36,972 nucleotides of DNA, from assembly GCA_048213135.1 (NCBI GenBank), contig PS015120.1, positions 181,538-218,509 on the forward strand. The letters run 5' to 3'. Below, piece after piece: positions 61 to 35,981 of this stretch (the first letter of the stretch is position 1; every line of letters begins with the position of its first letter). Made by a program: the position numbers and the translations under genes. The notes under the pieces were generated by a model. The model was not told where the DNA came from, ran no database searches, and saw only the letters and a program-made list of their open reading frames with translations. The stretch is from Reclinomonas americana ATCC 50394 (lineage: Eukaryota).

Positions 61-2254
61 GACGTGGTGCTGATGAAGAACGGCTACCCGATGACGCTGG
101 CCCAGGTGTTCGAGAGCCTCAACATGACGGCTTACGAGCTGAGTGTGGACACGCTGGATGTGCACGCCGACAAGTCGACCTTCCACCGCTTCGACAAGTT
201 CAACCTCAAGTACAACCCGATGGGCCAGAGTGCGCTGCGTGAGATTTTCCTGAAGACCGACAATTACATTCATGGACGGTACTTTGCCGAGCTGTGTCAA
301 GAGGTACTACGCGGCCGGTTGCTTGAACCTCTGTCGCTCTGCACTTGTGCTGACAACAACGCTGTTGTGATTGCACAGGTGTTCCAGGAGATGGAGGAGT
401 CCAAGTATCAGAACACGGAGCCCCGCATTTCCATCTACGGCAGAAATGTTGCGTCTTGGGTGTTGTTGTGCGGCGATGATGCGTGGACCACCGCTGATTT
501 CATGCACCCTCAGCGCAACGAGTGGGACCGACTGGCCGACTGGTTCAATCGTCACAAGGTGTACTCGAACAATGTGCGTTGGTTGGTGCAAATCCCGCGC
601 CTGTACAGCGTGCACAAGCGTTCGGGCGGCGTGTACAATTTCCAGGAGTTTTTGGATAGCTGCGTACTGCTGGCAGTCGACGGGCGCACACCTTTGGGGA
701 AGAAGTGACCGCTGACGTTGTGTGTGTATCTCTCTCGTGGGAACAGATATTTTTGTTCCCCTGTTCGAGGTCACGTGCGATCCGACGAGCCACCCGCACC
801 TCAACAACTTTTTGCAGCAGTTGGTCGGCTTCGACAGTGTCGATGACGAGTCGAAGGCGGAGAAGAAGTTCCACCACAGGTGAGAGAGTCGGTCCGTTGA
901 TACATCCCATCTCCCTGCGATTGCTGACGTGTATACGACGCAGCAATCCGCACCCCGAAGACTACACGAGCGACGACAATCCATCCTACGTCTACTACAC
1001 GTACTATTTCTATGCAAACATGTTGCGTCGTGGGCATGAGCTCCCTGACCTCTTTGCTGTTGCTCACACATTGCATTGCAGCTTTGCACTGAATAAGCTG
1101 CGCAAGCAGCGCGGTCTCAGTTGCGTTGTGGATTGAACGACGCTGCGTGTCTTCTCTTCCGCGCCACTCACCGTGACCCTTGTTGCCCCACAGACACCTT
1201 CAGTTTCCGACCGCACTCTGGCGAGGCCGGTGACGATGATCATCTCATGGTCACCTTTTTGTTGGCCGACGGCATCAACCACGGCATCACGCTGCGCAAG
1301 AACCCCGTCATGCAGTACCTGTACTACCTGACGCAAATCGGCATCGCCATGTCGCCGCTGTCGAACAACTCGCTCTTCCTCAGCTACGACCGCAATCCAT
1401 TCCCGCTCTTCTTCAAGCGCGGACTCAATGTGTCGCTCTCCACGGATGATACGTATCTCTCTCTTCGTTTCTCGCATGCTCATGAGAGAACGCAGTGTGG
1501 ATCTCATCAGCAAGTTGTGTTTTTCTGCGTGTTCACATCCCCTGATGTTCCACTTCACCAAGGAGCCGCTGATGGAGGAGTTCAGCATCGCCGCGCNNNN
1601 NNNNNNNNNNNNNNNNNNNNNNNNNNNNNNNNNNNNNNNNNNNNNNNNNNNNNNNNNNNNNNNNNNNNNNNNNNNNNNNNNNNNNNNNNNNNNNNNNNNN
1701 NNNNNNNNNNNNNNNNNNNNNNNNNNNNNNNNNNNNNNNNNNNNNNNNNNNNNNNNNNNNNNNNNNNNNNNNNNNNNNNNNNNNNNNNNNNNNNNNNNNN
1801 NNNAGGTGTACCACTTGAGCACGTGCGATTTGTGCGAGATTGCCAGAAACAGCGTGTACCAGTCTGGGTGGGAGCACAGCGTCAAGTCGTACTGGTTGGG
1901 CAGTCGGTACAAGCTGCCGGGTCCGCTCGGAAATCGTGAGTGGGGGGTAGCGAAGAGAAGGGGAATGCTTTTGAGTCAGCGTTGCTCACTCGTCCCTTGC
2001 AGAGATCGAGCGCACCAACGTGTCACAGCTGCGCGTCGCCTACCGCTACGCCACTCTGTGCCAGGAGCACCGCTTCGTGCTGAAGTTGCGCCGCGTGACT
2101 TTCTCCTTCACTTCCAAGAAGCGTCGCTAAACCGCGTGTTTCCCTTCTCCTCTCGTGCAGATGTTTGGCCATTGGCAACGAGCAAAAGGCAGCGGCGGCC
2201 GCTGCAGCTGCTGCCGCGTCTGCTTCGCGGGCGTTGCGTTCACCAGGCAAGTAG
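61..2254 (+). CDS. AMPD: AMP deaminase, C-terminal catalytic domain (5'-partial, about 10 introns, one gap)
   Basis: Spliced translation gives family motifs: [142 protein letters not shown]. Introns at 304-378, 448-513, 659-746, 880-943, 1022-1081, 1120-1193, 1449-1536, 1936-2002, 2085-2160. Stop TAG at 2252-2254. Confidence 0.97.
1449..1536 (+). other. AT-AC intron (88 nt) in AMP deaminase
   Basis: ACG GAT G|ATACGT...GTGTTCAC|AT CCC CTG restores the conserved STDDPL motif. Confidence 0.8.
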
Positions 2255-2449
2255 CCAGGGGGGAGTAGAGCGAGTGGGGGGGGGGAGAAAAATCACGGCG
2301 CACAATGTATAGCTGTATCGGCAATGGACGAGAAAGAGCCACCGGCGATTTACTTGACGACGCTCTCCTCGTCACAAGAAAAACACAAGGACTGAATGTA
2401 TACGGTGAAGGCAAGACAAGACAGACACACAGACACACACTCTACCACA

Positions 2450-4617
2450 TCACCGCCGGCCCACACCCGGCACAAACGAGTCGGCGACGGATTTGTTCTG
2501 GCATCTATCCTCGAGAATGCCAAACACCTCGTCGTTGCGACGACACACAAAGAGCACCGACGGCCGCTTCACCTCCTCCACCAGCAGGCACGGGAAAGAT
2601 GCCGCTGACGACGACGACGACGACGATGACGAAGAGGAGGAGGAAATCGCCGGTCCGGCGAATGATTTCGGAAAGAAGAAGCGCACAAAGGCCGGCGCGG
2701 TGACACACGCGCGATGTGGCACCACAGACGACTTGACGCGCGCTAGCCCGTCGACATCGGCAAAAGGCCACTCGACGCGACGCACCCTCCGGAGCGTAGT
2801 AGTGGTGGACAATGATGGCGTGCTCCTTGACGCACACATACTCGTCCTCGTACAGCACCTCGCCGTCGTGCAGCTCCCACGAGGGGTCCACAGTGGGACT
2901 GCAGCAGGCACAGGAGGTGAGAGAAGAGCAAGAGAGAGANNNNNNNNNNNNNNNNNNNNNNNNNNNNNNNNNNNNNNNNNNNNNNNNNNNNNNNNNNNNN
3001 NNNNNNNNNNNNNNNNNNNNNNNNNNNNNNNNNNNNNNNNNNNNNNNNNNNNNNNNNNNNNNNNNNNNNNNNNNNNNNNNNNNNNNNNNNNNNNNNNNNN
3101 NNNNNNNNNNNNNNNNNNNNNNNNNNNNNNNNNNNNNNNNNNNNNNNNNNNNNNNNNNNNNNNNNNNNNNNNNNNNNNNNNNNNNNNNNNNNNNNNNNNN
3201 NNNNNNNNNNNNNNNNNNNNNNNNNNNNNNNNNNNNNNNNNNNNNNNNNNNNNNNNNNNNNNNNNNNNNNNNNNNNNNNNNNNNNNNNNNNNNNNNNNNN
3301 NNNNNNNNNNNNNNNNNNNNNNNNNNNNNNNNNNNNNNNNNNNNNNNNNNNNNNNNNNNNNNNNNNNNNNNNNNNNNNNNNNNNNNNNNNNNNNNNNNNN
3401 NNNNNNNNNNNNNNNNNNNNNNNNNNNNNNNNNNNNNNNNNNNNNNNNNNNNNNNNNNNNNNNNNNNNNNNNNNNNNNNNNNNNNNNNNNNNNNNNNNNN
3501 NNNNNNNNNNNNNNNNNNNNNNNNNNNNNNNNNNNNNNNNNNNNNNNNNNNNNNNNNNNNNNNNNNNNNNNNNNNNNNNNNNNNNNNNNNNNNNNNNGGC
3601 ACAGAGCAGGGAAGACGCAACGGTGCTTTCGGAGCCGGCACCGCATGCTGCGGCTGTTTCCTGCGGTTCCTCCGTCGGCGGCTGCTCGCTGATCGCGGTG
3701 GCGAGGCAGCCGACGAGGCGCCGCCAAACACGTCGCCGACACCCGACGCCGAGCCATACTCGTCTTCCCCGCCCTCGTCACCGTCGTCGCCCGCGCCACT
3801 GCTTCCATCGTCACCCACATCGACTTGCACAGACGACGCCTCGGCATGGCCAACGAAAAAGCTCGCCGCCCCCGAGCCCATCAGCACCGACTGCGGATCG
3901 ACGGCGCACGGCACGAGAATGCTCTTCAGATGGAACAAGTCGTCGGAGAAGAGGCCATTCTCCTGCTTCAGACGCTGCGAGGAGACATTGTAGCGCACGG
4001 AGAGGCCCATCAGCGTGTCGGCTGCGCACGAGTGAGCGACAACATGCGGAACAGTCTCTCTCTCTCTCTATCACGCGCGCGCGCAACTCGGCTGCGTCCA
4101 ATGATCAATCACCAATCGCCGCTTCGACGCGCCTGCCAAGTCACTGAGCTCATTCGGCGGCGGCGATCCCTGAAACGTGCTGGCAACACGAGGGAATAGT
4201 CAGAAGACAAGAGAGCATTGGCCGCATGATTTCTATTTCTGCGATGACTGCTCTCTCTGCTTCTCTCTGCTTCTCACTCAACTTGTACACATTGCGCGTC
4301 TTGCGCGTGGAAAACGTCTGCAACTGCGCCTCCTGCTCGCCACCCCTCGCATCATCATCCGCAAGCATCACATCTGTCGTCACTCTCCGTCCACTGGCCC
4401 CGAATTCACTGCGCCCTCCGCCTCGAATCAACGAAGTGCTTGCATTTGCGGTCGACGCCCACGAGGGTGCGCCACTTCCACTTCCGCCGCCCTCGAGCAA
4501 GTCACCGTCACTGTCACTGCCGACCAGAGAGAGAGTGGCGCCTCCACCGCCTCTCCCGCGCACGACGACTGCTGGTGGAGGACGCGGAGGCCGTGTTTTT
4601 GATTGTGAGGAGCCCAT
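2450..4617 (-). CDS. LysM-domain protein with N-terminal myristoylation-like motif; link to the exons beyond gap 2940-3597 is inferred
   Basis: Starts MGSSQSK (G2/S6). Removing introns 4282-4180 and 4087-4022 gives HWTQPTDTLMGLSVRYNVSSQRLKQENGLFSDDLFHLKSILVP, a eukaryotic LysM pattern. Downstream same-strand exon reads EVLYEDEYVCVKEHAIIVHHYYAP. Confidence 0.75.
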
Positions 4618-4997
4618 CAAGTGTGTGCGTGCGTGCGTGCGTGTGAATGAGGAATTGCGGCATTGTCCGATGGTGTCCTGACGATGTTGTGAGTGGGTGT
4701 TTTCGGTGTTTCTTGTGTCGTGGTGTGCGATGTAGTGTCATGTGCATGGAGCATGTGAGCGTGCAAGCGCTGCGTGAGTGGAAGTCGGTGAAATGCAACA
4801 GAATGACGGAATCAGTGCAAGGAAAACGCGTCACTCGCTGCTCTCTTTTTTCTCTGCACCCATTCCTCTCTCTACTACCACCACCACTGCTGCGTCGCTG
4901 GTGCTGAATTGCAGCGTCGCACAAGCCGCAACTTCACGGGACAGTCGCGCATCTGTCCACGCACATTGCTCGCGGCCGTTCATTTTTTCATTCAGCG

Positions 4998-6259
4998 ATG
5001 GTTTGCGCCGTGTGCTCCTCCTCTCCCTCTCTCAGTGTGTGTGTGTGNNNNNNNNNNNNNNNNNNNNCCCTCCTCCCTCCTCCTCCTCTCTCTCCTCCTC
5101 TCTCTCTCCCTCTCCCTCCTCTCTCTCTCCCTCTCCCTCTCTCTCTCCCTCTCACCAATGATGCATGCATGCATTCACTGTGAAATGTCAGGTGTATGCA
5201 CTCCGCGAGACCGAGCAACGACAGCGTGAGCGCATTCAGCAACTGGAGGAGACCGTCGACAGCCTGCGACCATATCGCGAAGAAGTGTTGGATCTGCGAT
5301 CACAGGTTGACTCGCACTCTCTCACTCATTCACTCATTCACTCTTTCCTCGCTCACTCACTCTCTCCCTTGAAGAACTCGGTCCTCCACGAGCAGTGCAA
5401 GCGAATGGAAGACGAAGTGCATCGTCTGAGCTTGCTCATTGTGGGGTACGCTCATTCTCACTGTCTCCGCGTCATGTGGCAAGCGGAGGCATTCATCCGC
5501 GCATTCGCAGGCAAGAGCGTGAGCTGGATATCGCCTCACAGGTGGCCAGTGAGCAGATTGAGCGTGCGCGACCGCAGTGGGAGAACGAGCTGCGCGATGT
5601 GCAGGCGCAGAATGCGGCGTTGCGAGAGGACCGCGAACGGCAAGTGCGTCTGCGTGCCGAGGTGGAGAAGGAGGTGCAGCGGTTGGGTCGCATTGTGCAG
5701 ATGCAGCAGCGGGAGGCGGAGTCGCGGGAAATGGTGTTGAGGAGGGAGGTGGACAGGCTCACTGGTGCGTCTGTCTTTCGTGGAGTGAGTGAGTGCGTCG
5801 CTGCTTCGGACCGATTGTATTCGTGCAGAGTTGATTGGTCACTCGAGCATGGAGCGCAAGGATCAGGAGGATCACTTGTATCGCTTGCAGCTGGAGCTGT
5901 CGGATTTGATTCGACGCGAGGCGCAAGTGACGTACCGGTGAGCAGGAGACGTGGAGGAGTTGGTTTTGTGTGATGCTGAAAATCATAAATTGCATCGCAG
6001 TATGGGACTGGAGTCGCCGACCGCAGCGTCTCCGGTCTCCTCGTCGCTGGGTGCGGCCGGTGGCATCTCGTCGCCTCTCGGATTTTCACGCGGACCAGTG
6101 GATGCTGGCTTCTCATCGTCGGTGGGCATGGGCATCGGGGCCACGGCGTCGCCAATGCCAGCGGTGTTGCGAGTGGAGAGCTTGCTGTCGCCGCAGGGGC
6201 GCTACTCGTCGACCACGAGAGGACAAGCTGCAGCGGCATCATCTCGTGAATATGATTAG
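4998..6259 (+). CDS. Coiled-coil protein of unknown function
   Basis: Exons splice in frame through G|GT donors into an E/Q/R/L-rich heptad sequence (VYALRETEQRQRERIQQLEETVDSL...WENELRDVQAQNAALREDRERQVRLRAEVEKEVQRL) and an S/P-rich tail ending REYD*. Start codon uncertain. Confidence 0.7.
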
Positions 6260-6562
6260 CTGCTGCTGCTGCTGCCGAATCACGTTTTGTGCTGATTGTT
6301 CGCATCTTCCTGCAGCTCTCTCGTCTCCATACGGACGCGCACACGCGCAGCCTCTCTGTTGCGTTTCTCCTGTCGCGTGTTGATGACTGTACGTGCCAAC
6401 TGACTGTGTGATTCACGTCACCCCACGCAGACGATCAGCGATGAATAATCCCAAGTCGGTGACCCGGGCGGGCGACAATGAATCGCAACGCGAATGTAAC
6501 AACACGATTCAATGTTGGACGAGTGCGCAGGGAGAAAATTGCCCACGAACAAACAAGTCGCG

Positions 6563-8781
6563 TTAGCGGGCTGGCGGCGGTGGCGGCGGAGGTGGTGGTG
6601 GTAGAGGTGTTACTGTCGTCGCGGTGCCCGCTGGAGGAGAGCGGTTGGCCGGCGGTGGTGGCGGTGGCGGCGGCGGAGGTCCACGAGTGCGCAAGAGTTG
6701 AGCAGCTCGTGCAAGTTCTAGCTGTTGAGGAGAGGCGGGCTTGCCAGACGGCGATGATGGTGAGTCCGGGGCTGCGATGAGGCACAGGGCGATGTCATTG
6801 CGAAGACGGCGAGAATGTCTGCAAAAGCGCGCCGCACACGCACCACGATCGTGCACGATAACACTGCTCATGCTCCTCGGCTTTGGCGGCGGTGCTGCAG
6901 GCAGAGAGCAAGGCAATGAGTGGAATGCACGAGGAGCAGAACATGGTGGCGTGCACGCGAACCAGGCGTATTTCCAGCATGTGGTGAACCAGCTGCAAAA
7001 ATGCACAAGTGAGATGGAGAGCAAGGAGGAGGATGAGGACGACGAGTTACCGGAGGCAGGCGAGCGAGACGACGGCGATGCTGTGAGCGATAAATGACTG
7101 GTGAGCAAGCTCACTGTGTGGCACAGCTTGAGAGGAGGTGGTCGAACCTGCCGAGGGAGAGCCGCCGAAACTGCGTTGCATGAAAGGCACACGTGAGCAC
7201 ACACGCTGGCAAATGCACAAATAAGTTGATGCTTGCTTGTCACTCACCGGCTGTCATGAACCAAGGTGGACGGCGTTTCTGCAGAAGGCGGTGTGCGTGC
7301 ATGAGGATAGGTGATGAGAGGAACCGCGAGACGTGGCTCGGTAGCTCACCAGCTGCGTCTTCCAGTTCGTCTACGGTGCCTAATCGGCGAACACCGAGCT
7401 TGCCCTTGCGGTCGGGAAGAGGGGGCGGTGCACCGCGGGATCCAGAACTCGGTCCTGCTGCGATAGCAAAAGTGAGTGAGGCACTGTCTTCCGACGGAGG
7501 AAAAGAATGCACGGGCGAGTGGCACACCAGCAGCGACAGCAGCGGCCGTGGCGGCGGCAGCCGAGGCCGCGCCCACTTTGCTGGACGAGCCACCTGTGTC
7601 ATGAAGTCGCAGTCGGTGATCTGACCACACCCAAACAACGATATGCAGTAAGAAACGCACCACCGGCGGCAGCCGAGGCAGTCGGTCTCGTGGGATCGCG
7701 GCTGAGTACGCGCTCCACACAATCGGCGAGGGGCGCCATGTCTTTCTTGCCGATGATGTTGTGCTCGTGCACAAAGAAGACAAAGTGCTCGAACGCGTGA
7801 TGGAGCACCGAGGAGGCTTTTGGACCGCGTTTCTGAGCAAGTAACGAGGTGAGTGCTGCGCGATCTGCAAGGCGGTGCAGCAGCCCACCACGTGAACTGC
7901 ATCTCGTCGTTACCCAGTTCCCAACACGTGCCCCATTTCACGAACTGCAGAACGCCCCACCCGCACCCGCAATAAACACCCTCACTCCTGCCACCTCCTC
8001 ACCTTCATCGTCGGTAGATGATGATGGTAGATGTGAGCAAACACGCGGAACAGCCTCCGATACACCTTGTGCATCAACTCGGAGAAATGCGGTGGATACC
8101 GCGCACCCGGCTCCACGGGAAACACCTCCGTGTCATTCATCAACGCATCGATCCACTCCAGCAGCAGCGACACGTACTGATGCGCCGGCACCGAGATTGG
8201 TTGTCCATTCGCCGGCACCAGCGGAGGCTCTCCCCACAAGTACTCAAACCTGCGCATGTTGCATAAGAGGACACGCTGCATGCAGAACAAGAAGCTGCGT
8301 ATGTGTGTCAGGTGAGCAACCTGGGTCCGGCAGTCATCTTTGGGCACGAATCCCGCGTGCAGTCGGCTTGCACGTTCCCAAAGAGCAAATTGGCGGCATC
8401 ATAGAACTCAATGACATTGGCGGCGATCCAGTCGTTGAGCGCGGCACTTTGCGGAGTGCGCACGAGACTCTACACACACACACGCACATGTGCATTAGAG
8501 AGTGGAAGAGCAAGTTACAAAACCGTCATGATGCGCGCGCTCGCACCTCCAGTGACTCATCGTCATCAGTGACGGAGTTGAGTGAGGCCGTGCGGATGTG
8601 CTCTTGCAGAGTGTAGCGAGAGGTGGCACGACGAGCGGCCATTGCTGACTCACTCAGTGAGGAGCGACGATGCGGACGATCATTGTCACTGTGTGCATGA
8701 GTGAGTGAGTGTGAGTGTGTGTGTGTGTTAGTGTGAGGAGCGCAACAGTCCGCCGTCTGTAGTCAACACTGCGCTGTTCAT
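6563..8781 (-). CDS. MOB kinase activator (Mob1/phocein family) with long Pro-rich C-terminal extension
   Basis: Spliced core reads LNDWIAANVIEFYDAANLLFG..CTRDSCPKMTAGPRFEYLW..VPAHQYVSLLLEWID..FP..FSELMHKVYRRLFRVFAHIYHHH..FEHFVFFVHEHNIIGKKDMAPL. Further same-strand exons end in PPPPPPPPPAR* at 6563; the tail's exon structure is approximate. Confidence 0.9.
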
Positions 8782-8820
8782 GCGTGCACAAGACAAGCAA
8801 AGTAAAAAGACAAGTGTGGT

Positions 8821-9618: not shown

Positions 9619-10631
9619 CTGCAAGCGTACTTTGATCAAGTCTATCGGATTCGTCAGAAAGGCGGCCATGGCGCCAGCTGCAGCGCCACAAGCTGTGTAC
9701 GCGTGTTAGCGACAGTGAGAACCCGCTTCCTCGTGTTGAGCGGAAACGCACCGAAAAATACATAATGCGGCAACGCGGCCACCTCCTCCACCCGATAGTG
9801 CCGCATGAAGCCGACCTTGAGCTGCTCGTAAAACATCAAGTAGAGACCGCTGTAGGGCCCAAACGTCAACAGCGTCGCGCCGAGTCCCTTGTAGAAGCCG
9901 CGAATGCCAGTCGTGTCCCAGATCTTGCCAGCAATGCGCGTCACTGGCACGTACCGCTGCGTGCTGATCGCCTGCTGTCGCTGCTTCAAAACATCCACTG
10001 GCACCCATCTGGTGCGAGGGGATCGCGGAATGAGGGGTGGTGACAGCCGAAGAGACTGACAAAAAGAGAGACAGGCGAGCGCAACATGCACGAGCTGCCG
10101 AGCTCTGCGGCAAAGCCGGCACAAAAGTCGGCAATCAGTGGTCGCTCCCGCAGTGCAGGCAGGCGATGGAGGTAGCTCTTGGTGACTTCGTACGTGGAAA
10201 AGTACAGCATGCCCGCGGGCACAGAGCCGGTCATTGCTGCACACAGTGCTGCGAAGTCAACAAGAGGAGGAGACAACGCATGCCTTACTCCCTCCTCTCT
10301 GTTCGCAGGGGTGTGTGTGTGTGTGTGTGCATGCATCACTCACCGACTGCGACTCCGGAGTAAAAGCCGACAAAGCCCGAGTTCCGGAAGACAGTGCGCA
10401 CAGTGTTGAGGAGGCTTGGTCGCACGCCGAATCGACTCGACTGTGTGATGAAGAGGAGAGTGAGTGAGTAAGTGTGGAGAGATGAGTGATGAGAGATGAC
10501 TGATGCATCTTCCTTGCCTCGGCTTGTCGAATGGTCTTGAGAGTGTCGACAGGGTGCAACACGATGCGCGACACAATGCCGGCGACTGCCGAGGCCACCA
10601 GAGGCACTGTCATTCCGCCCTCAATCAACAT
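9619..10631 (-). CDS. Mitochondrial carrier family (SLC25) protein, 3' end in gap
   Basis: Three Px[DE]xx[KR] signatures after splicing: HPVDTLKT, VPVDVLKQR, NPIDLIKVRLQ. Also GFVGFYSG and GIRGFYKGLG. Confidence 0.95.
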
Positions 10632-13550: not shown

Positions 13551-13587
<37 letters not shown>

Positions 13588-13946
13588 GTGTGGAGGGGGG
13601 TGTTATTGGCGTCGTCTTTCATCTTACGCGCACTCCCAGTTGTCGCGGTATGCGTTTAACGACTCATACATTGGAATGCTCGGTGTCGCGCCTCTCGCAC
13701 GCGAGGCTGTCACAACGTTGCGCCTGCTTCTGTGTCGTTCTCACACGGCTCTAGGTTGTGTGCACTGATCACCGACACAACAGCCTGGTCTTTGGCCTCC
13801 TGCTCCATCTGTGGCTCATGCCGCGCGTCAAAGCGGCTTGGCAGGCACGGAAAGACACAGATGAGGTGGACGGCATGCAGGAGCTGCCTGAGTTGTCGGC
13901 CACACTTCTGTCGCCAGAGGAGAAGGATTCTTCAAAGCAATCGTAG
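10986..13946 (+). CDS. MATE (DinF/DTX-like) multi-pass transporter, about 19 short introns
   Basis: Manual splicing gives one continuous hydrophobic ORF with MATE-like segments: FSFVTSVVTFMSAVTTNVISR, YWRIRSVLFVFTPIKSVMDGTLLG, VGSAIATVALD, GIVPSIFEDYVLVVGSRL. Stop TAG at 13944-13946. Confidence 0.7.
13534..13591. repeat. Intronic compound (GA)n(GT)n microsatellite
   Basis: Seen directly. Similar tracts near 5068-5152, 14697-14718, 19273-19298 and 35649-35699; several lie next to assembly gaps. Confidence 0.9.
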
Positions 13947-14278: not shown

Positions 14279-14568
14279 ATGACGCGCCGACCATCGCTCC
14301 TCCTCCTCCTCTCCCTCCTCTTCTGCCTCTCCCTCTCCACACTGCTCGTGCACATCACCGCCGCTGCTCGCCCCTGTGACCTCCCTCCGCTCTCCACCAC
14401 CGCCGTGTGTGACCCCTCGAAGCCCATCAATGATCGCGTGAGTGCACTCATCGCGCAGCTGCTCACGGCGGAGAAGGCCGGTCTGTTTGTCAATGGAGCT
14501 GCCGGCATTCCGCGTCTCAACATCCCCGCCTATCAGTGGTGGAGCGAGGCGCTGCATGGTGTCGCAGA
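14279..14568 (+). CDS. GH3 beta-xylosidase/arabinofuranosidase, exon 1 with signal peptide
   Basis: MTRRPSLLLLLSLLFCLSLSTLLVHITAA signal peptide, then VCDPS..RVSALIAQL..GIPRLNIPAYQWWSEALHGVA. Donor GA|GTTGAGG at 14569. Confidence 0.95.
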
Positions 14569-24700: not shown

Positions 24701-26069
24701 CTGAGGTGGGCGCGCCAGCCGCAGAACGCGTCACCGTGGCCCCGCTGACATCGATGGCCACCGCCTTTCGCGGTTGATTCACATGTGCCGGAATCATGTC
24801 ATTGGTGGTGGCCACCACTGGCCGGCCGACCACCAGCACCGGATCTGCCGCGTCGTAGCTAACCACACCGGCTCCTCGCAGTGAGCCAGCTGATGCCGAC
24901 TCGCGCATTGGGGGTGCACGATCAGCAGCTGGTCTCGAAACGCCGCCGAGAGAGCCCGCCGAGGCCGAGCCACGAACAAGACTCGGTGGCTGCGCAGGCG
25001 CGGCAGCCGAGGGCGGAGACGGCGTCGTTGTCTGTCGAAGAGAGCCGGCAGAATTCGACGAGCGCACCAGCGGAGGTGGTTCCTCAGCCACCGCCGCCGG
25101 CGGCTCCGCAGGCGTAGTGACAATGACTGACGAGAGCGGGTGCGCAATAATGTCGGCCGACTGCAGAGCTGCGTCCAGGTATTTTGAAACCATGGCCTTC
25201 TTGCGCGGGTCACTCGTGCGGGCGAGCATGGTACGCGGCGTCAGTGGCGTGCTCTGCACGATAAATACGAATGAGAAAGCGGGGGGAGAGCGTGTGTGTG
25301 TGCGCCCATTGCGTACGTACCTCATTTGTGGGACTACCCTGAGAATCGCCGACAGTCACGTCACCGGGGCGGCGGAAAGAGTCTTGTCGCCGTGGCGCGC
25401 GGTTGGCTCCACTCTGACGTGCACCAGTGAGCGAGGACGGAGGGAGAGAGGGGGGGATAAAAAGAACGCAACTCCACCGGCAGAGGGCAATCGGCGTTCC
25501 GACGGTTGAGGTGGGCGTTCCTGTGCGCACAGCAAGTGAGAAGCGAGAAGCAACACCACCCACCACCGCGTTGGCGACTGCAGCGCACCGTCTTGAACGA
25601 CACGCCGATTCCGAGTCCCGCCGACGGCGAAGCACGCACGCTGGTCGACGATGACGATGTAGGTGATCCAGCAGTAGTTTGCACCAGCGGCGCGGGCACA
25701 GCAGCCGCCGCAGCAGCAACAGCGGTCTCGATCGTGGCAATCTGCACCCGCGACTGCGAGCGTTGCACGGCAGGTCGAGCTGGAGCCGCAGCAACAACAG
25801 GCTGTGCTCGTGCCACAGGTGTCGGCATGGAGGCCACTAGCGGTGGCGGCTCCGCAACAGCAACAGCCGCAGCGGGAGCGGGAGCAGCAGGCTGCACTGG
25901 TCTCGGACGACCCGACAGACGAGACTCCTGCCACCACAAAGCGAGCGTCAAGAGCGCGCAACGCAACAAGGATCCATCGCAACAACAACACCAGTACCTC
26001 ACTCTCCCGCGCATCGGCAATGGCCTTTTGCAAGTCGCCCAGCTTTGCGGCCGAGTACTTGGAGATCGG
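21763..26069 (-). CDS. Large low-complexity (Pro/Ala/Ser-rich, acidic) protein with helical C-terminal region; 5'-partial; may be two genes
   Basis: Consistent minus-strand exons bounded by GT..AG on both sides of gaps 23402-23421 and 23886-24679, e.g. PISKYSAAKLGDLQKAIADARE, SEYTEAMNRFSAHSADKELMIEILQMQQQELEDL, STLIDVWLQHTNGELSRIG. Stop TAG at 21763. No family recognised. Confidence 0.6.
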
Positions 26070-26104: not shown

Positions 26105-27249
26105 CCCACAGCAAAGTGAATACGGTCACCGACCGCACCATGCGCGAGCTGCGCTGCGGCCTCCGCCATGCTCGCGAGTCACCAGATATTTTGTGTGTGG
26201 TCATCACCGGCTGCCGTGAGAGCCGCCTGTTTTGCGCTGGATTCGACATTGCCGAGGTGCGTGCAAGGCAACGTGCACACAGCATGTCTCCGCTCCGCAT
26301 CTCATCACCTCCCTTGCCAGTTTGCTGCCGTGCAGGATCACCTCACAAAGACCGGATCCGATCCCTCATCGGTGGTGCAGCGCGGTCATGCGTTCCAATT
26401 TCTGTGGGATTTGGTGTGTTCCATTGCGTGACATTACGGCTGAGCCACTGTTTGGCATTCACCATCGAGCTGCACAGATGCACTTTGAGAAGCCGGTGGT
26501 CGTCGGAGGTGCGTTTCTGCAAAATGTATCGAAGAGGCAAGAGTCATGCTTGCTGAATTCCATCTCACAGTCACCGGTGGCGCCATTGGTGTGGGCGCCA
26601 CAATGCTGCCGCTGTGCGACATTGTCGCGGCCACCAAGAACGCCTACTTCCGCACTCCGTTCTCCGAGCTGTCGATTGCGCCAGAGGCAGCGTCGAGTGC
26701 AACTCTGACCCAGATGCTGGGCGTGAATGGTGAGCGTGCCTCCTGCCATGTGTAACAGTCGACGTCGTGTGCCTCACACTCCTGCTCGCAGTGGCCACCG
26801 ACATGCTGATGCTCGGTTCGTATCCAATGCACTGTCGCTTGTAGATTGTCCCTCTCACCCATGCACGCGCACACACACGCACACAGGTCGCACTCTGTCT
26901 GTCGAGCAGGCCCATGCCGGTGGTCTCGTCGGCACCGTGTGCGCCGACGTCGACGCCCTCAATGCCGAGCTGGACGCCGTGGTCAACAAGCTGATTACCA
27001 TCGGAGCCGATGCGGTCAACTCGACCAAGAAGGCACAGTGCCGCTGGTCGTCTCACACTCATGTGAGTCACCACAGTCGCCTCACTGCGAATTTTGTTTG
27101 TTTGCGTGTCGCAGCTCATCCGCGGTCCACTGCTGGCGAGCTGGGAGACGGCCTACAAGGCCGAGTTGCCGGTGCTGGCACGCCTGCTGGCCTCCGATCG
27201 CAGTCGCAAGGTGATGCGCGACTTTTTGATGGCACGCGGCAAGCTGTAA
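26105..27249 (+). CDS. Crotonase-family enoyl-CoA isomerase/hydratase (ECI2-like), 5'-partial, C-terminal -GKL
   Basis: VVITG..FCAGFDI, FEKPVVVGVTGGAIGVGATMLPLCDIV, FRTPFSELSIAPEAASS, DMLMLGRTLSVEQAHAGGLV. Ends ARGKL*. Confidence 0.92.
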
Positions 27250-27351: not shown

Positions 27352-28046
27352 TTACATGGCCCGTCGAGGTGCCGCTGGCAGTTGCCTTGGCGTTTCACCG
27401 CCAGCCGCTGCAATCGGCAACGATGCGCCCGCCAGCTGCGGCAGTCCCGAGCGCACAGTCACCAGCGCCTGACTGGTGGCCACAGTCATTGCCGCCATGG
27501 TTCCTCCGCGCGGAGACTTGAGCGACGGCAGCGCTGGCAGAGACCACTTCTTCGCCGCCTCCTCCTCCTCGTGCTGGCGATGCGCACGAGGCGAGTGGTA
27601 ATGCTCGGCATAGAACGGCGCACCCACCGGACAGTACGAGTGCTCCAATCGAATATCATCCAGCTCGCACGAACTGGAGACCGCTGCGAGGTGAGTGCGC
27701 CAGGCCACAAACAGGACGGCAAACAAAGTGGAAGGGGAACGCAACTCTGCGCTCATCATGACATCGTCGCACTCTTCTCTTCTTCCCGCGTGCTCCTCCT
27801 GCTGTTTCCTGCTCTCCTCCAGTCGCCGTTGCTTCAGTTGCTCCAGTTTGCGCAACACTGCTGCACGTTGTCGCGCACGCTCACTCTCCAACAAGCCAGC
27901 CAGCCACTCCTGTGCGTGTAAGAGAGAGAGAGAACAAACCGCCAAAAAATGGTCAACGACTTTCAGGTCACGCGCCTCTGGTACACAGACGAGTTGAAGT
28001 CGCTCACCGGCACTTGTGAAGTGATGATTGCACTGCACGCAGGCAT
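27352..28046 (-). CDS. Hypothetical protein with a short coiled coil
   Basis: EWLAGLLESERARQRAAVLRKLEQLKQRRLEESRKQQEE. Intron 27745-27674 (A|GTTGCGT..CAG) keeps the frame. Stop TAA at 27352. Start uncertain. Confidence 0.55.
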
Positions 28047-28167
28047 GATACACACACTCGCGATTCTTTGGGAGACAACGCGCTCTCGGAACAACTTGAA
28101 ACGAAGAAAACCGGTTTCAGGACAGGACGAATTGGTTCGAATCTGTGCGACGTCGATCAAGATTTTT

Positions 28168-30404
28168 ATGCTCTCGTGGCGAGGCACACACGAATCCCTC
28201 ATCAACCCCTCGTTTGAGGGCTACCGATTGAGCCACCATGCGCGGGAGAGCGAGGCATTGACACAGTCCGCGGTGTGGACGTCGGAGAATCGCCCCTTTG
28301 CATTCAAAGACACTGGTGGCGCCGCAGACAAGGCCGACGATCTGGCCACATTCATGCGGTGCGAGAGAGACAGAGACGCACGTACGCGCAGGCAAGAGAT
28401 TCGCATCTCTCACTCTCTCTTTCTCGCTTGCAGCAAAGCACATGCTCAACTTCGCAATGCGCTGACGTGTGCATCGTCGTCGTCGGCGTTTCTCGTGGCT
28501 GACGAGCAGCGTCGCCTGTGTCGCGTCAGCGCAGCCAGTGGCGATGTGCACGTGCTGATCACACCCTCAGCGGCAGCTGCTGATGTGCAGCACGCGGAAC
28601 AGACGAGTCCATCGGTGGCTGCAGCCGATCACGGTCTCTCCGTTTGTCACATGCACGCTGCTGCATCCATCGTCACTCACAAGCGCGTTGCGTGTTAGGC
28701 TTGGTGGTGTACTGTGACGGTCTGGGTCGGCTGTACGTGGCTGGCGAGCAGGAGGAGCCGCTGTTGCAAGTCGACCTGCACGACTTGCCGTGCTTGTATG
28801 TGGAGGATGCGCGGGTGTATGCGGTGCCGGAGGCGGGAGCGGACCAGTTCGATCTGTGGGTGGCGGTGCAGTGGTCGCGAGTGGAGCACGTGGAGCAGGC
28901 GCGGACGCTTCTGCGGGTGTTTGTGGCGGCGGTGCCGTTGGCGCGGTTCCGTGTGGTGGTGGCGACTGCGGCTGCGGCTGCGGCGGGTGGTGGTGGTGTG
29001 CGGCTGGAGGAGTGCTACGTTGGCGATGCGTCGCAGGTGGAGAGTCGATGCGTGGCCAGCGACAGGTAACCGCAACAGCCGATGCCGATGCTCACTCTTC
29101 TTCTTCTTCTTACTCGTTGTTGTCAGTCGCGGTGCCGCCGATCCGCACCCGAATGTGCTGGCGCTGCATCCGCATGCTGCTGGATACCTACTGACGGTTG
29201 CCTCGGTGACGTACACGACGGCGGCGACACAGGCCAAGGGCAGCAGCGGCAGCATGTCGGTGTCGACACAGTCGTCGCCAGCGCGACCGAATGTCGACCC
29301 GCAGGCCATGTTGCGTGGCATGCCGACGGCGGAGGAGTTTGATCGGCGGCACTTTGCGCGCGTAGAGGAGGTGAAGGATGCGGAGGACATGGAAGACGAA
29401 GATGAGACGGATGAGCTGGATCCAGAGGAGAGGGAGCGGCTGGCGATGCACATGCGCAAGTACACGTCGGAGACGGATCTCGATCGACTGCCGGGTGTGA
29501 TGGACCGCGAGGTGAGCGGTGGCGGCGGTGACAGAAACGCCCCTCTCAAAAAAAGCTGACTGCTCTCCCTCCTGTTCATGGCAGACTGGCGAGACCTTTC
29601 GCAAGGACTACGTGTACGCAGAGCAGTACGATGAGGAGTCGTTTGCGGCCGGTCCCGGCGCCGACGGCTATGCCAGCACGTTTGCCTCGCAGCTCTTTGA
29701 ATTTCGGCGTGAGAGCGCGGCGGCCGGCGGTGCAGTGGGTGTGATTGAGCGTGGTCGCGTGTGCCCGCAGGAGGCCGGCTATCAGTACATGGGCCACAGC
29801 AGCGGCGTACGCGACGAGCACAATGGTTTGTGTTCTGTCGCGTGTTTGTCAGTGCGCGCTCTCGTTCGCTGACCGGGCATGCGACCCAGGACTGCCGCTG
29901 GTGGGCCTCCGCAATGGTCTCGACATGGTGGTGTTCACCATCGAGCCCGCGGACGACAGTGGCGCTTCCTCCTCCTCGCCATCGTCGTCGTCACCTGCGC
30001 TGCAGTGGCGCCACGTGGCCACCTTTGATGCGCTGGCGTATGTGGCGTCCGGCAAGCGCAACAAGAAATTCATCTCGTTTTCGCCGTCGTGCAGGTAAAG
30101 TGTGGCGCCAGCACTCGCGCCCGCGTCTTCTCTTCTACACAGACTCACAGGGGTTGCGTGAACACACACATACGCACACAGTGCCGCTGTGCTGGCCGAG
30201 TTCAACAACTACTTTTACGTGTACGACGGAGCGAGTGCCTCGATATCGGCCGCCGCCGCCGCCGCCGCCGCCGCCAACAAGCGTCGACACCAGGTGGTGC
30301 AGTTGCCGGAGTGGCGCGAGGACATTCTCGGCGTGCGCATCACCGACACCACAGTGACACTGCTGCAGCCGAGCGCCCTCGTCACCTTCCGCATTGATGC
30401 TTGA
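28168..30404 (+). CDS. NUDCD1: NudC domain-containing protein 1 homolog
   Basis: N-terminal LINPSFEGYRLS, central ERERLAMHMRKYTSE, and C-terminal LVGLRNGLDMVVF and WRHVATFDALAYVASGKRNKKF match the NUDCD1 motifs as recalled ([46 protein letters not shown]). Confidence 0.88.
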
Positions 30405-31532: not shown

Positions 31533-32545
31533 GTCGTCATCGTCCTCCATGCCTCCACTTCCGCAGCTGCCTCCGCTGGTGTCAATGCCGCCTCCTCCAC
31601 CACCTCCTCCACCTCCGACTGCGCGAGGAGGACGAGCGACTGCAGCAGCAGCAGCACCGCGACGACGCGGAGGCAACAATCGCTTGCCTGAGCGTGCGCT
31701 GGACCTGCTGAAGCGACACGTGAAGCGCATGCGGCAGCTGCAGTGGACCAAGTGTGGCCATGCCGACCCTGTGCCAGTGCCCAGCACGCAGGACAAGCGT
31801 GTGCTGGCCGCGCAAGCTGGCATGCAACTGACGCAGGTGTCGAGTTGGTGAGTGCCTGCCTGTGGATTTAGTTGTGTCTCTGTGCATGCGCTCAGCTGTG
31901 GGCAGGTTCATCAACGCGCGCTATCGGTGCACCAAGGACCCGGGTCTCGTGCAGAGCTTGTTTGGGTCGCCGATGGGTGTGCCGGGTCATGAGAAGCTCG
32001 ACCCGGAGATGCCGATGCACTTGGGCGTGAGCGAGTCGACAGTCTCCGAGCCGCAGCAGCCAGCACTAGCACCCCAGGCACCACCACCACCACCGCCGCC
32101 ACCTCCAGCATCAGCGTCACCAGCAGTGCCTGTGATGCATCCGCTGCTGTCGCAGCCGACGAGCATGCTGTTTACGCCAGTTTCGTCGTCGGTCCCTTCG
32201 CCTGTGCAGCACCATTCGCCACCGAGACCTGTGGTGGTCGGTGTGCTGCCGCCTGCGTTGCCGGTGGGTATGCTGGCCAACTATCAAGTCGTGGAACAAT
32301 GGTACGCGCGCTTGCCGCGGTGGCAAAGTCGTGCCATTTTTGCTGACGTTTTTTTACCATGCAGGTTCCTAGCACACATCGATCGCCCGTACGCCACACC
32401 GCGTGAACGGCAAGAGCTAAAGGAACGATCAGGGCTCTCTCGTCGCGACATTCAACGGTACCTCCGATCACGACGAGACGCGCACTGGAAGTCACTCGGC
32501 GACCCGTGCTACCTCAGTGGCGACTCGGACGATGGTGGCGACTGA
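31533..32545 (+). CDS. TALE-like homeobox transcription factor with a second degenerate homeodomain (copy 1, 5'-partial)
   Basis: RLPERALDLLK...PVPSTQDKRVLAAQAGMQLTQVSSW|FINARYR with an intron inside the Trp codon. Second unit: VVEQW|FLAHIDRPYATPRERQELKERSGLSRRDIQRYLRSRR. Confidence 0.85.
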
Positions 32546-32759
32546 ATCGCTGCGCTTTGTTTACTGTGTTTTACAATCCTCTTCTTTCTTTCTCTATCTG
32601 TTTCGTTTCCTGCCTCTGCACGAATTGGCGGCGTTGAATGGGTTCGTAGTCGTTGTGTGGTCGGTGTGGGAAGAGCGTCGCAAGTGAATTCATGAACGTC
32701 CTTGTGTCATGCAAGTCATTTGTCAGTGATCACAGTGTGTGAGTGTGGAGCGAGAGCAA

Positions 32760-33242
32760 ATGGACGGAGGAGGAGGCAGTGGATCAGCAGCACCGTCTGC
32801 AGCGAGTGTGGCATCGTTGACGTCAGCGGCCACTGTCAAGTATGTGTGTGGAGGTGCGCGAAAAAAGTCGAGTGAGAGAAGGATGCAGATGCGCGCGCCA
32901 CATCCCTCCCAGTGGTTGTGTGTGTGTACGAGAGAGAGAGAGAGAGAGAGAGAGCGCGCATTCCAGTCTGGCATTGACGCGCAATCAATCACATTTGTGA
33001 GTCGAGTTTCTCACTCACTCTCTCTCTTTCCGCACTTCTTGTAGACTGCAAGGAGAAGTCCTCCATCAAGTTCGGCGATCCCATCAAGTGCCACAACTGC
33101 GGGCATCGCATTCTCTACAAGACGCGCACCAAGGAAAGTTGCGTGACTCACTCTCTTTTGGCATCTCTTGTTGCTTCTTCTCTCTCTCTTTCTCAGCGTT
33201 CTCTTTGCCACACGCACAGGGATTCAGTACGTTGCGCGCTGA
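32760..33242 (+). CDS. RPB12: RNA polymerases I/II/III shared subunit RPABC4 (copy 1)
   Basis: Removing introns 32854-33044 and 33138-33219 gives VKYVCGDCKEKSSIKFGDPIKCHNCGHRILYKTRTKERIQYVAR*, the RPB12 zinc ribbon. Not present in the ORF track. Confidence 0.96.
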
Positions 33243-33356
33243 GCTGCGTGTCCGTGCGTGAGTCGTCGCTTCCAATGTAGATGGTGTGAATGTGCAAGAC
33301 AGTTTGGGAGATACTTTACTACACACGGTGCGTATTACAACTACTGTTCAAGTGGA

Positions 33357-34227
33357 TTACACGGGCCTGCTGTTGCTGTCACGTGGTCGCATGGGTGATT
33401 GGGTGCGTGAGGAGCTGCTGCCGTTGACGGTGAGGGAGGAGCCCGATGATACGCGCACTACGCCTGGCGCACTTCCAGCGCGTGGTGGTGATTGGTGGTG
33501 CTGGGCTGCAGCAGCTGCAGCGGCGGCGGCGGCGGCCTCGGCCACAAAGGAGACCGGCGGAAGCATGGGTGGGGCACGTGGCGCCGGCGAGGGGTGTCGT
33601 GGTGGTGAAGACGAGGATGGCGCAGCAGCAGCTGTTGCTGTTGTAGCAGCGGCAGCCGCCACAACCGCGGGAGGAAGCGGCACAGCCAGTGGGATGGATG
33701 CCGGCGGCGGCAACGGCATGGGTGGCGCCACGTATCGACGCACCTCGGCAGCCAGTGGCGCGTGTGGCGGTGGCGGCGACAGCCGATAGCTGGCGGCCGT
33801 CACCAGTGCCGCCGCTGCGGCTGGCGACGATCGCATCGCCACGCTGACATTCATCTCGCCGTCTTTCGGCACCAGCGTGTACTCCCACTCTGTGACGACT
33901 GGCAGCAACGGCGCTGCGGCATCGGCAGCGGCCGCAGCACTGGGGCCGGCTGCTGCTGCTGCTGCCGCTGGGGGTGGTGGTGGCGGTGGCGAAAACTCGA
34001 ACTCGCGCAGCAAGTTGGCCGACACGAACTTGACCATGACCAGCTGCACACAAAAAATGAGTGAGGCCGCCAGCACCACACAGGAGAAGAAAAAAGATAG
34101 CGCACCCCAATCGTCCTCCAAAACCCCATGGCATCACCAACTCCAAATGTCCAGTAGGCCGGGAAGCGCGTGTTACACCGACACTCGAGTGCCGACAGCG
34201 GTCTCCACGGCTGCGTCATTGACTGCA
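33357..34227 (-). CDS. Cytochrome P450-like C-terminus lacking the heme cysteine, followed by a Pro/Ala tail (copy 1, 5'-partial)
   Basis: Spliced: FPAYWTFGVGDAMGFWRTIG|LVMVKFVSANLLREFEFS...EYTLVPKDGEMNVSVAMR. This matches the FGxG heme loop, L helix, LLxxFEF and TLxPK strand pattern of P450s. Confidence 0.55.
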
Positions 34228-34247
34228 NNNNNNNNNNNNNNNNNNNN

Positions 34248-35271
34248 ATCATCATCATCGGCATCGTCTTCCATGCCTCCGCTTCCGCAGCTGCCTCCTC
34301 TGGTGTCCATGCCGCCTCCTCCACCGCCTCCTCCACCTCCGACTGCGCGAGGAGGACGAGCGACTGCAGCAGCAGCAGCAGCACCGCGACGACGCGGAGG
34401 CAACAATCGCTTGCCTGAGCGTGCACTGGACCTGCTGAAGCGACACGTGAAGCGCATGCGGCAGCTGCAGTGGACCAAGTGTGGCCATGCCGACCCTGTG
34501 CCAGTGCCCAGCACGCAGGACAAGCGTGTGCTGGCCGCGCAGGCTGGCATGCAACTGACGCAGGTGTCGAGTTGGTGAGTGCCTGCCTGTGGATTTAGTT
34601 GTGTCTCTGTACATGCGCTCAGCTGTGGGCAGGTTCATCAACGCGCGCTATCGGTGCACCAAGGACCCGGGTCTCGTGCAGAGCTTGTTTGGGTCGCCGA
34701 TGGGTGTGCCGGGTCATGAGAAGCTCGACCCAGAGATGCCGATGCACTTGGGCGTGAGTGAATCGACAGTCTCCGAGCCGCAGCAGCCAGCACTAGCACC
34801 CCAGGCACCACCACCACCGCCACCACCTCCAGCATCAGCGTCACCAGCAGCAGTGCCCGTGATGCATCCGCTGTTGTCGCAGCCGACGAGCATGCTGTTT
34901 ACGCCAGTGTCGTCGTCGGTCCCATCACCTGTGCAGCACCATTCGCCACCGAGACCTGTGGTGGTCGGTGTGCTGCCGCCTGCGTTGCCAGTGGGTATGC
35001 TGGCCAACTACCAAGTCGTGGAACAATGGTACGCGCGCTTGCCCCGGTGGCATAGTCGTGCCATTTTTACTGACGTTTTTTACCATGCAGGTTCCTGGCA
35101 CACATCGATCGCCCGTACGCCACACCGCGTGAACGGCAAGAGCTAAAGGAACGATCAGGGCTCTCTCGTCGCGACATTCAACGGTACCTCCGATCACGAC
35201 GAGACGCGCACTGGAAGTCACTCGGCGACCCGTGCTACCTCAGTGGCGACTCGGACGATGGTGGCGACTGA
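34248..35271 (+). CDS. TALE-like double-homeodomain protein (copy 2)
   Basis: Near-identical to 31533-32545, with the same introns and stop. Confidence 0.85.
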
Positions 35272-35490
35272 ATCGCTGCGCTTTGTTTACTGTGTTTTAC
35301 AATCCTCTTCTTTCTTTCTCTATCTGTTTCGTTTCCTGCCTCTGCACGAATTGGCGGCGTTGAATGGGTTCGTAGTCGTTGTGTGGTCGGTGTGGAAAGA
35401 GCGTCGCAAGTGAATTCATGAACGTCCTTGTGTCATGCAAGTCATTTGTCAGTGATCAAAGTGTGAGTGTGTGTGTGGAGCAGAGAGCAA

Positions 35491-35646
35491 ATGGACGGAG
35501 GAGGAGGCAGTGGATCAGCAGCACCGTCTGCAGCGAGTGTGGCATCGTTGACGTCAGCGGCCACTGTCAAGTATGTGTGTGGAGGTGCGCGAAAAAAGTC
35601 GAGTGAGAGAAGGATGCAGATGCGCGCGCCACATCCCTCCCAGTGG

Positions 35647-35689
<43 letters not shown>

Positions 35690-35981
35690 AGAGAGAGAGT
35701 ACATTCCAGTCTGGCATTGACGCGCAATCAATCACATTTGTGAGTCGAGTTTCTCACTCACTCACTCACTCACTCTTTCCGCACTTCTTGTAGACTGCAA
35801 GGAGAAGTCCTCCATCAAGTTCGGCGATCCCATCAAGTGCCACAACTGCGGGCATCGCATTCTCTACAAGACGCGCACCAAGGAGAGTTGCGTGACTCAC
35901 TCTCTTTTGGCATCTCCTCTCTCTCTCTTTCTCAGCGTTCTCTTTGTCACACGCACAGGGATTCAGTACGTTGCGCGCTGA
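35491..35981 (+). CDS. RPB12: RNA polymerase subunit RPABC4 (copy 2)
   Basis: Same exon structure and protein as copy 1; synonymous GAA/GAG difference just before intron 2. Confidence 0.96.

Follow-up and report, generated by a model that had tools for sequence, protein, structure and literature searches.

Does the last base of an exon decide which 5' splice site (donor) the following intron carries? The question is raised by a stretch of 36,972 bases from Reclinomonas americana ATCC 50394 (contig PS015120.1), in which AT-rich spacers lie between GC-rich coding stretches and 3,814 N are spread over 12 runs. This single 37-kb stretch, referred to as the window, was our sample, and all positions are counted from its first base. 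A first-pass annotation had proposed that introns begin with GTTGCG(T), i.e., the ordinary donor with one extra base, where the upstream exon ends in A, C or T (non-G exons), and with ordinary and looser donors where it ends in G (G exons). Within the window, we confirmed that the donors fall into two classes according to the final base of the exon: among 70 curated introns, shifted donors, defined as G[T/C]T[G/A][C/A]G, followed 23 of the 31 non-G exons (8 had other donors) and none of the 39 G exons (Fisher p=4.4e-12). We take the GTTGCG(T) sites for true 5' ends of U2-type introns in a GC-rich protist; that they are read by an RNA helix displaced by one base and formed with a lineage-specific partner is, judged from the sequence, an evenly balanced proposition.

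Intron placement and the dependence on the last exon base

The 70 curated GT/GC-AG introns were drawn from 13 gene models and six isolated donors, and were graded by the basis of their placement. Tier 1 comprised 26 introns (one of them AT-AC) placed by homology or register with the donor motif unused, tier 2 comprised 11 introns inside Pfam-identified genes, and tier 3 comprised 34 introns based on open-frame chaining and signals only. Two donors were excluded from all counts, namely that at 35887, a tandem duplicate of 33138, and that at 9174(-), which lies in low-complexity sequence. The curated introns were short, ranging from 52 to 223 nt with a median of about 67 nt.

Homology was used to place the junctions because self-trained gene finders were untrustworthy: codon and intron dynamic-programming models ran through in-frame introns and served for suggestions only, and one self-trained finder yielded 181 spurious introns. 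A composite regular expression for donor, branch, and AG was insufficiently specific, and a signal-only scan was poorly specific, returning 54 matches in the real sequence versus 21 in the reversed sequence at a score of at least 10. For the AMPD and GH3 (beta-xylosidase-like) genes, all GT/GC-AG and AT-AC pairs up to 36 nt from each junction (16 to 96 candidate pairs per junction) were spliced, and the translations were scored against 10 homologs. The curated pair was top-ranked at 19 of 19 junctions, leading by 2.8 to 19.4 score units. Seven other tier-1 junctions (GH3 14569, Mob1, the mitochondrial carrier, the LysM protein, two in RPB12, and TALE) were placed by alignment spacing or by Pfam/PDB register. 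As expected for U2-type introns, the termini were GT (or GC)/AG, and removal of the introns restored a conserved reading frame (19/19, plus the 7 by register).

In tier 1, shifted and other donors numbered 11 and 1 after non-G exons and 0 and 13 after G exons, respectively (Fisher p=2.7e-6); when tier 2 was added, the corresponding numbers were 12 and 2, and 0 and 22 (p=7.3e-8). The same pattern was observed in every one of seven unrelated tier-1 genes. In tier 1, G occupied position +5 after 1 of 12 non-G exons versus 11 of 13 G exons (p=2.1e-4), and T occupied +3 after 11 of 12 versus 3 of 13; in the whole set, G at +5 followed 6 of 31 non-G versus 35 of 39 G exons. As proposed, the conserved G is thus relocated to +6 instead of +5 after non-G exons, together with T at +3. 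All 26 shifted hexamers listed in the first-pass annotation were present at their coordinates, each after A, C, or T.

GTTGCG itself occurred 49 times in the window. The expectation was 35.1 ± 5.8, and a count of 49 was reached in 0 of 100 shuffles. Its scarcity after G (3 of 49 cases) was dropped as evidence, because G is equally scarce before GTTGCT/A/C (6 of 73); therefore, only the comparison of real introns is a valid test. GGTTGCG occurs three times in the window, at 12278, 30153, and 19517(-), and the gene models use none of these sites as a donor.

Seven G-ending exons were followed by T at +3 (16174(-), 17872, 29826, 12598, 26816, 12922, and 8320(-)). Their donors were GTTTGT (three times), GTTCGC, GTTCGT, GTTAGT, and GTTGCT, and all but GTTGCT retained G at +5; the GTTGCT donor, in the Mob1 gene at 8320(-), also carried no G at +6. 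Additional GTTGCGT sites after non-G bases, absent from the first-pass list and belonging to no gene model, were present at 6358 (+), 3621 (-), and 2233 (+). The first is followed by a branch-like CTGAC and, 73 nt downstream, by a CACGCAG acceptor; that at 3621(-) adjoins an N run.

Anatomy of the two classes and pairing with U1

The 23 shifted donors carried U at +3 (23), G at +4 (22), C at +5 (21), G at +6 (23), and U at +7 (16), and were preceded by U, A, C, and G in 11, 10, 2, and 0 cases, respectively. From +3 to +8 they contained 7.3 bits of information, versus 2.6 bits in the G class, whose donors are, as the first-pass annotation had described them, looser (GT, usually with G at +3 and +5). 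Conservation in the shifted class ended at +7, with 0.08–0.12 bits at +8 to +10. The heptamer GUUGCGU can be read as GUGCGU, the ordinary donor of the window, with an additional U following GU, or, to the same effect, as G/GUGCGU (the slash marks the splice junction) with the second G changed to U and the cut made one base further upstream. A parse displaced by one base at both ends was rejected, as it needs TT...GN termini and, reasoning from the contexts, gives no consistent 3' dinucleotide.

The remainder of the intron was similar in the two classes. In 18 of 22 shifted introns and 31 of 47 others, a CTNAY motif, mostly CTCAC or CTGAC, lay no more than 45 nt from the acceptor, and C occupied -3 in 21 of 22 and 42 of 47, respectively. 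The median lengths were 66 and 69 nt (shifted range 56–103 nt), and the GC contents were 0.54 and 0.53. A YTNAY branch-like motif and a pyrimidine-AG acceptor, as in U2-type introns, were therefore found in both classes. That the classes agree in branch motif and CAG acceptor, as well as in length and GC content, indicates that a single spliceosome type is at work with two donor grammars.

Regarding U1 small nuclear RNA (snRNA), the shifted donors could form on average 6.04 of 11 pairs in the +1 register versus 4.48 in the canonical register, in line with the first-pass annotation, and this greater pair count, taken by itself, favours a helix displaced by one base. Duplex energies, calculated with U in place of pseudouridine and with U1-C, Luc7, and the cap ignored, averaged -1.3 to -1.4 kcal/mol for canonical U1 on the shifted donors in the best duplex of any register, compared with -7.75 kcal/mol on G-class donors; 142 unused GTs in homology-fixed exons averaged -2.83 kcal/mol, against -1.44 kcal/mol for the shifted donors. 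Pairing of canonical U1 in the shifted register, as first stated, is thus predicted to be unstable. Among 64 U1 variants (positions 5, 6, and 8), the canonical sequence ranked 60 for the shifted class, and variants with G5, C6, and A/G8 reached -10.2 to -10.5 kcal/mol. The C at +5 of 21 of the 23 shifted donors would be a mismatch to U1 position 5. Deleting the extra T is predicted to improve canonical U1 binding to -2.45 kcal/mol, and hence canonical U1 cannot account for the use of GUUGCGU over GUGCGU after non-G exons.

The predicted failure of the canonical duplex favours a displaced helix with a lineage-specific partner. In the window, introns after G carry a loose donor, and those after other bases nearly always start with the heptamer GUUGCGU, a perfect GUGAGU being the rarer choice. 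This agrees with the known division of 5' splice sites into an exon-heavy and an intron-heavy class, except that the intron-heavy donor is here the local ordinary one set one base further from the cleavage site. In the introns after non-G exons the intron-side RNA helix may lie one position further in, in a shifted or one-base-bulged register, so that the intron G+1 would take the place normally held by the exon G-1, with cleavage still set at the first GU. The simplest partner would be U1 or a U1 paralogue able to pair with UUGCGU, its 5' end carrying G at position 5, a pyrimidine (C or U) at position 6, and a purine (A or G) at position 8; protein or U6-stage help would be an alternative. 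The pairing model makes the universal U1 5' end alone an unlikely partner and a lineage-specific one, most simply a U1 variant or paralogue, more likely, and the variant U1/U6 that the first-pass annotation had offered as an alternative fits better than canonical U1. Overall, the mechanism first proposed is supported in part, with the one-base displacement of the helix favoured and canonical U1 alone unlikely, and the dependence is shown in one 37-kb window. In the most specific form of the idea, an additional U1-like snRNA, its 5' end reading roughly ...ACGCAAC..., would serve the approximately one third of introns that follow non-G exons, one base out of register, and canonical U1 would serve those after G; we put this forward tentatively, as a possibility. 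No Rfam family reached its gathering score in the window, and at E<=1 only three chance-level matches appeared, none of them to an snRNA.

Several observations weigh against the two-class and displaced-helix readings. Non-G exons lacked a shifted donor in 8 of 31 cases, the donors being GTGAGT (three times), GTTTGT, GTTCGC, GTTCAT, GTTGCT, and GTGCGA. Of the two GTGAGT exceptions listed in the first-pass annotation, 1936 is fixed by homology, and the one placed at about 23073(-) has no GT there, the A/GTGAGT donor (tier 3) lying at 23083(-); the third, at 27063, is ambiguous. Beyond those earlier listed were 13278 (A/GTTCAT), 22272(-) (T/GTGCGA), and 27063 (T/GTGAGT), the last two ambiguous. 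An exonic T/GTTGCGTGG at 29310 (+), in a long open exon of the gene at 28698–30398, is apparently unused if the gene model is right, in which case the heptamer alone is insufficient to define an intron. All junctions were placed by homology, register, or frame, 34 of the 70 introns rest on frame chaining in this single window, the register and partner were inferred from the donors, and the duplex energies carry the simplifications given above. The 5' end of U1 is almost universally conserved, which lowers the prior for a variant and favours an explanation by standard snRNAs.

Under that explanation, which is the one the first-pass annotation put first, universal U1 would pair in a +1-shifted (or +2/+3-bulged) register, with G+1 pairing with C9 instead of exon G-1, and a variant snRNA would be superfluous. 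The pair counts are on its side, and experiments have proven such registers for a few rare donors in human (PMC4856993), yet we regard it as unlikely given a predicted duplex weaker than that on unused exonic GTs, the near-bottom rank of canonical U1 among the variants, and the conserved mismatch at +5; moreover, GUGCGU, predicted to bind better, follows no non-G exon in tiers 1 and 2, the nearest instance being a tier-3 GTGCGA. The predicted negligible canonical pairing would also fit a heptamer read chiefly by a factor other than U1, such as a U1-C/Luc7-like or lineage-specific RNA-binding protein or the U6/U5 stage, with the offset reflecting the footprint of that factor, and two 5' splice-site classes have been described as set by U5/U6 potentials (PMC9803359, PMC11732430) and reported as defined by LUC7 paralogues (PMC11842720). 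Seven near-invariant positions are, however, more typical of RNA-RNA pairing, and this explanation appears distinctly unlikely. Against it, too, no segment of the canonical U6, U5, or U2 sequences is known to be complementary to UUGCGU.

An artefact of mis-modelled junctions, or a pattern limited to a few genes here, is suggested by the frame-chained share of the set, by placement from sequence, by the untrustworthiness of self-trained finders, and by the N runs and an inverted block within the GH3 gene. It is nevertheless very improbable in view of the 19 of 19 junctions top-ranked against homologs without the motif, and of the recurrence of the pattern in each of the seven unrelated tier-1 genes with the tier-1 p value given above. 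An introner origin would make the heptamer what is left of the 5' end of a transposon-like family, with the non-G exon base marking where it inserted. It would explain the fixed intron start and narrow lengths, but it is likewise very improbable: nothing is conserved beyond +7, the 3' signals are identical in kind to those of the other class, and donors paired no better with their own 3' ends (-9.07) than with those of other introns (-9.09; p=0.72). Pairing between intron ends was rejected on the last comparison, and a recent introner family was rejected for the lack of similarity past +7 and of terminal pairing, as judged without whole-intron alignment or clustering.

Introns of the individual genes

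The AMPD introns all lie on the plus strand and belong to tier 1, with the curated pair ranked 1 among the number of candidates given; the last entry is an isolated tier-3 donor located beyond the AMPD conserved region.

304–378 (+), G class, G/GTACTA; rank 1 of 96
448–513 (+), shifted, T/GTTGCGT; rank 1 of 58, homolog gap 22 residues
659–746 (+), GC-AG intron, shifted with C at +2, A/GCTGCGT; rank 1 of 32
880–943 (+), G/GTGAGA; rank 1 of 44
1022–1081 (+), T/GTTGCGT; rank 1 of 54
1120–1193 (+), A/GTTGCGT; rank 1 of 37
1449–1536 (+), AT-AC intron of neither class, G/ATACGT...TTCAC/; rank 1 of 54
1936–2002 (+), non-G exception with a perfect ordinary donor, C/GTGAGT; rank 1 of 75
2085–2160 (+), isolated donor A/GTTGCGC, tier 3; the frame also stays open without splicing, up to a stop at 2127

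For the AT-AC intron, G/ATACGT...GTGTTCAC/AT was the sole parse restoring the conserved STDDPLMFHF. Its donor resembles the local GTACGT and not the U12-type ATATCC, and it therefore looks like a U2-type AT-AC intron.

The GH3 gene (14369–18995) consists of three blocks separated by N runs at 14740–15193 and 16474–17377. The middle block, 15194–16473, is reversed, such that homolog residues 163–228 are encoded on the plus strand, 232–489 on the minus strand, and 490–884 on the plus strand; the inversion probably reflects either an error in scaffolding or a rearrangement that was masked. All of its introns belong to tier 1.

14569–14575 (+), donor A/GTTGAGG, with the acceptor in the inverted block at 16345(-); the spliced HGVA-DSP-GVSF preserves the 3-residue spacing of the homologs
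16110–16174 (-), G/GTTTGT; rank 1 of 63
15924–15991 (-), G/GTGTGT; rank 1 of 38
15739–15801 (-), G/GTGAGG; rank 1 of 46
15427–15504 (-), G/GTGTGA; rank 1 of 16
15342–15402 (-), T/GTTGCGT; rank 1 of 44, margin 4 score units
17595–17657 (+), T/GTTGCGT; rank 1 of 51
17872–17944 (+), G/GTTTGT; rank 1 of 46, with micro-exon DRESIDLPG
17972–18042 (+), G/GTGAGT; rank 1 of 20
18189–18263 (+), G/GTGTGT; rank 1 of 39, margin 2.8, inside a GT repeat
18303–18359 (+), G/GTGCGT; rank 1 of 38
18432–18497 (+), T/GTTGCGT; rank 1 of 50

The remaining Pfam-identified genes contributed the other tier-1 introns and those of tier 2.

8250–8320 (-), Mob1, G/GTTGCT, tier 1; Mob1_phocein 21–59 then 61–136, with split codon 60
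7833–8002 (-), Mob1, G/GTGAGG, tier 2; in-frame chain, the profile stopping earlier, at 136/170
10009–10085 (-), mitochondrial carrier, T/GTTGCGC, tier 1; Mito_carr register, fit within about 2 residues
10441–10517 (-), carrier, GC-AG intron G/GCAAGG, tier 2; sole in-frame GT/GC-AG solution after PVDTLKTIRQAE
10237–10343 (-), carrier, G/GTGAGT, tier 2
9678–9751 (-), carrier, G/GTGCGT, tier 2
4022–4087 (-), LysM protein, A/GTTGCGC, tier 1; the next exon begins at LysM profile position 7, after HWTQPT
4180–4282 (-), LysM protein, A/GTTGAGT, tier 2
32854–33044 (+), RPB12 intron 1, G/GTGCGC, tier 1; CGDC knuckle restored, Zn_ribbon_RPAB4 from profile position 6
33138–33219 (+), RPB12 intron 2, A/GTTGCGT, tier 1; the spliced tail has 8 residues past the aligned K, as in 11 of 12 PDB RPB12 chains
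35887–35958 (+), duplicate of RPB12 intron 2, A/GTTGCGT, uncounted
31848–31905 (+), TALE homeobox, G/GTGAGT, tier 1, duplicated at 34575–34632; the upstream exon matches Homeobox_KN 9–31/40, and S, a split W, and FINARYR supply 32–40
26257–26335 (+), enoyl-CoA hydratase (ECH), G/GTGCGT, tier 2; ECH_1 17–61 then 97–145, with 38 residues between
26414–26477 (+), ECH, G/GTGTGT, tier 2
26509–26570 (+), ECH, G/GTGCGT, tier 2
26730–26791 (+), ECH, G/GTGAGC, tier 2
26816–26886 (+), ECH, G/GTTCGT, tier 2
27063–27114 (+), ECH, T/GTGAGT, tier 2, ambiguous; an alternative in-frame G/GCACAG donor lies at 27033

The two GC-AG introns fall one in each class, at 659–746 (+) in AMPD (shifted) and 10441–10517 (-) in the carrier (G class). 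The TALE homeobox and RPB12 genes lie in a tandem duplication of ~2.7 kb (about 31600–34300 and 34330–36972), whose copies have nearly identical exons and a 10-nt indel inside RPB12 intron 2 (82 versus 72 nt).

The following tier-3 introns were placed by open-frame chaining and signals.

11364–13784 (+), membrane-protein gene with 17 introns; G class: 11364 GTGCGT, 11627 GTGAGC, 11821 GTGAGT, 12347 GTGTGG, 12598 GTTCGC, 12716 GTAGGT, 12922 GTTAGT, 13092 GTGAGT, 13526 GTGAGC; non-G: 12103 T/GTTGCGT, 12203 C/GTTGCGT, 12815 A/GTTGCGT, 13717 C/GTTGCGC, 11983 T/GTTTGT, 12489 C/GTTGCT, 13278 A/GTTCAT, 13388 T/GTTCGC
29066–30181 (+), four G-class introns of the gene at 28698–30398: 29066 GTAACC, 29512 GTGAGC, 29826 GTTTGT, 30095 GTAAAG
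5765–6000 (+), two G-class introns of a coiled-coil gene: 5765 GTGCGT, 5938 GTGAGC
22023–23083 (-), gene with five introns: 23083 A/GTGAGT, 22818 G/GTACGG, 22451 G/GTACGA, 22272 T/GTGCGA (ambiguous), 22086 T/GTTGCGC
8689–8746 (-), isolated donor T/GTTGCGC
11043–11117 (+), isolated donor T/GTTGCGT
21060–21115 (+), isolated donor T/GTTACGT
25414–25472 (-), isolated donor A/GTTGCGT
27684–27745 (-), isolated donor A/GTTGCGT

The gene at 11281–13784 (+) encodes a multi-pass membrane protein and has about 17 short introns. Its single exons gave no Pfam match, and a HMMER search of 1.8 billion representatives returned three multi-stretch, low-complexity-like matches and no usable relative. Single exons of the gene at 28698–30398 likewise gave no Pfam match.

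Comparison with known systems

U12-type introns have an RTATCCTT donor and a TCCTTAAC-like branch near the 3' end, and their donor is highly constrained and independent of the exon end. The shifted class is like them in its tightly constrained donor and in its lack of reliance on the exon end, and unlike them in that the donor is not RTATCCTT-like, the 3' half is that of the other class, and a third of the introns are involved. A U12-type assignment was rejected, since the donor is GTTGCGT and the branch, CTCAC/CTGAC, is common to the other class and not TCCTTAAC-like. Variant U1 snRNAs with altered 5' ends occur in animals, and a partner of this kind would similarly give a second 5' splice-site specificity in the major spliceosome; no organism is known to rely on a variant U1 for a major class of introns.

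Our literature search found no description of a GTTGCG/GUUGCG donor class, returning only primers and unrelated RNAs (logos present only in figures or supplements would escape it), and nothing on such a class of donors shifted by one nucleotide. The nearest protein relatives, none of them close, showed identities of 62% for AMPD and 54% for GH3, and the named ones came from heterolobosean, Phalansterium, and Diplonema transcriptomes. Diplonemid donors are given as (G)/GTATG in section 5 of PMC12621601, and diplonemids are therefore no match for the shifted class. Metagenome contigs searched with a GH3 exon yielded 80 loci, the best at 40% identity, with no close relative among them, and these loci were left out of the analysis.

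If true lineage-wide, a third of introns with a one-base-offset donor strictly linked to the exon end, in a free-living lineage, would constitute a natural experiment. It would bear on how the cleavage site is set independently of the U1/U6 helix, on the permissible drift of snRNA 5' ends, and on how intron sequence offsets coding constraints at exon ends. In practice, gene finders that use ordinary donors or a single donor matrix would mis-splice about a third of the junctions.

Non-canonical U1 registers have so far been known only as rare mammalian exceptions. In human, shifted (+1) and bulged (+2/+3) registers are proven at atypical donors (work of Roca and Krainer; Tan et al. 2016, PMC4856993), with 68 predicted bulge +2/+3 sites and 51 bulge +3 sites in Table 3 of the latter, which also reports about -6.5 to -7.6 kcal/mol measured for a shifted model oligonucleotide with canonical U1. 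The donors described here are like those sites in consisting of an ordinary donor with one base added after GU, with G at +6, U at +7, and the cut before the first GU. The human sites, as described there, are rare and form a contiguous, stable helix with canonical U1; here, by contrast, 23 of 70 introns are involved, the shift is linked to non-G exon ends, the donors are predicted not to bind canonical U1, and the conserved C would mismatch it.

A division of 5' splice sites into two major classes, AG//GUNNN (U5 loop 1) and //GURAG (U6 ACAGA box), was described by Parker et al. 2022 (PMC9803359) and in a 2025 review (PMC11732430). The introns in the window share with it the anticorrelation of exon- and intron-side information, loose after G and strict otherwise, and the roughly comparable class sizes (39 G versus 31 non-G). 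The two-class view presumes, however, a GURAG-type intron side with G at +5, whereas the strict motif here was GUUGCGU with G at +6, and G at +5 followed non-G exons only at the low frequencies given above. Similarly, human donors show a compensation in which G at -1 is almost invariant where G at +5 is absent (2004 work, described in PMC8283771). The last exon base is as strongly tied to intron positions here, but, unlike in human, most donors without G at -1 are also without G at +5.

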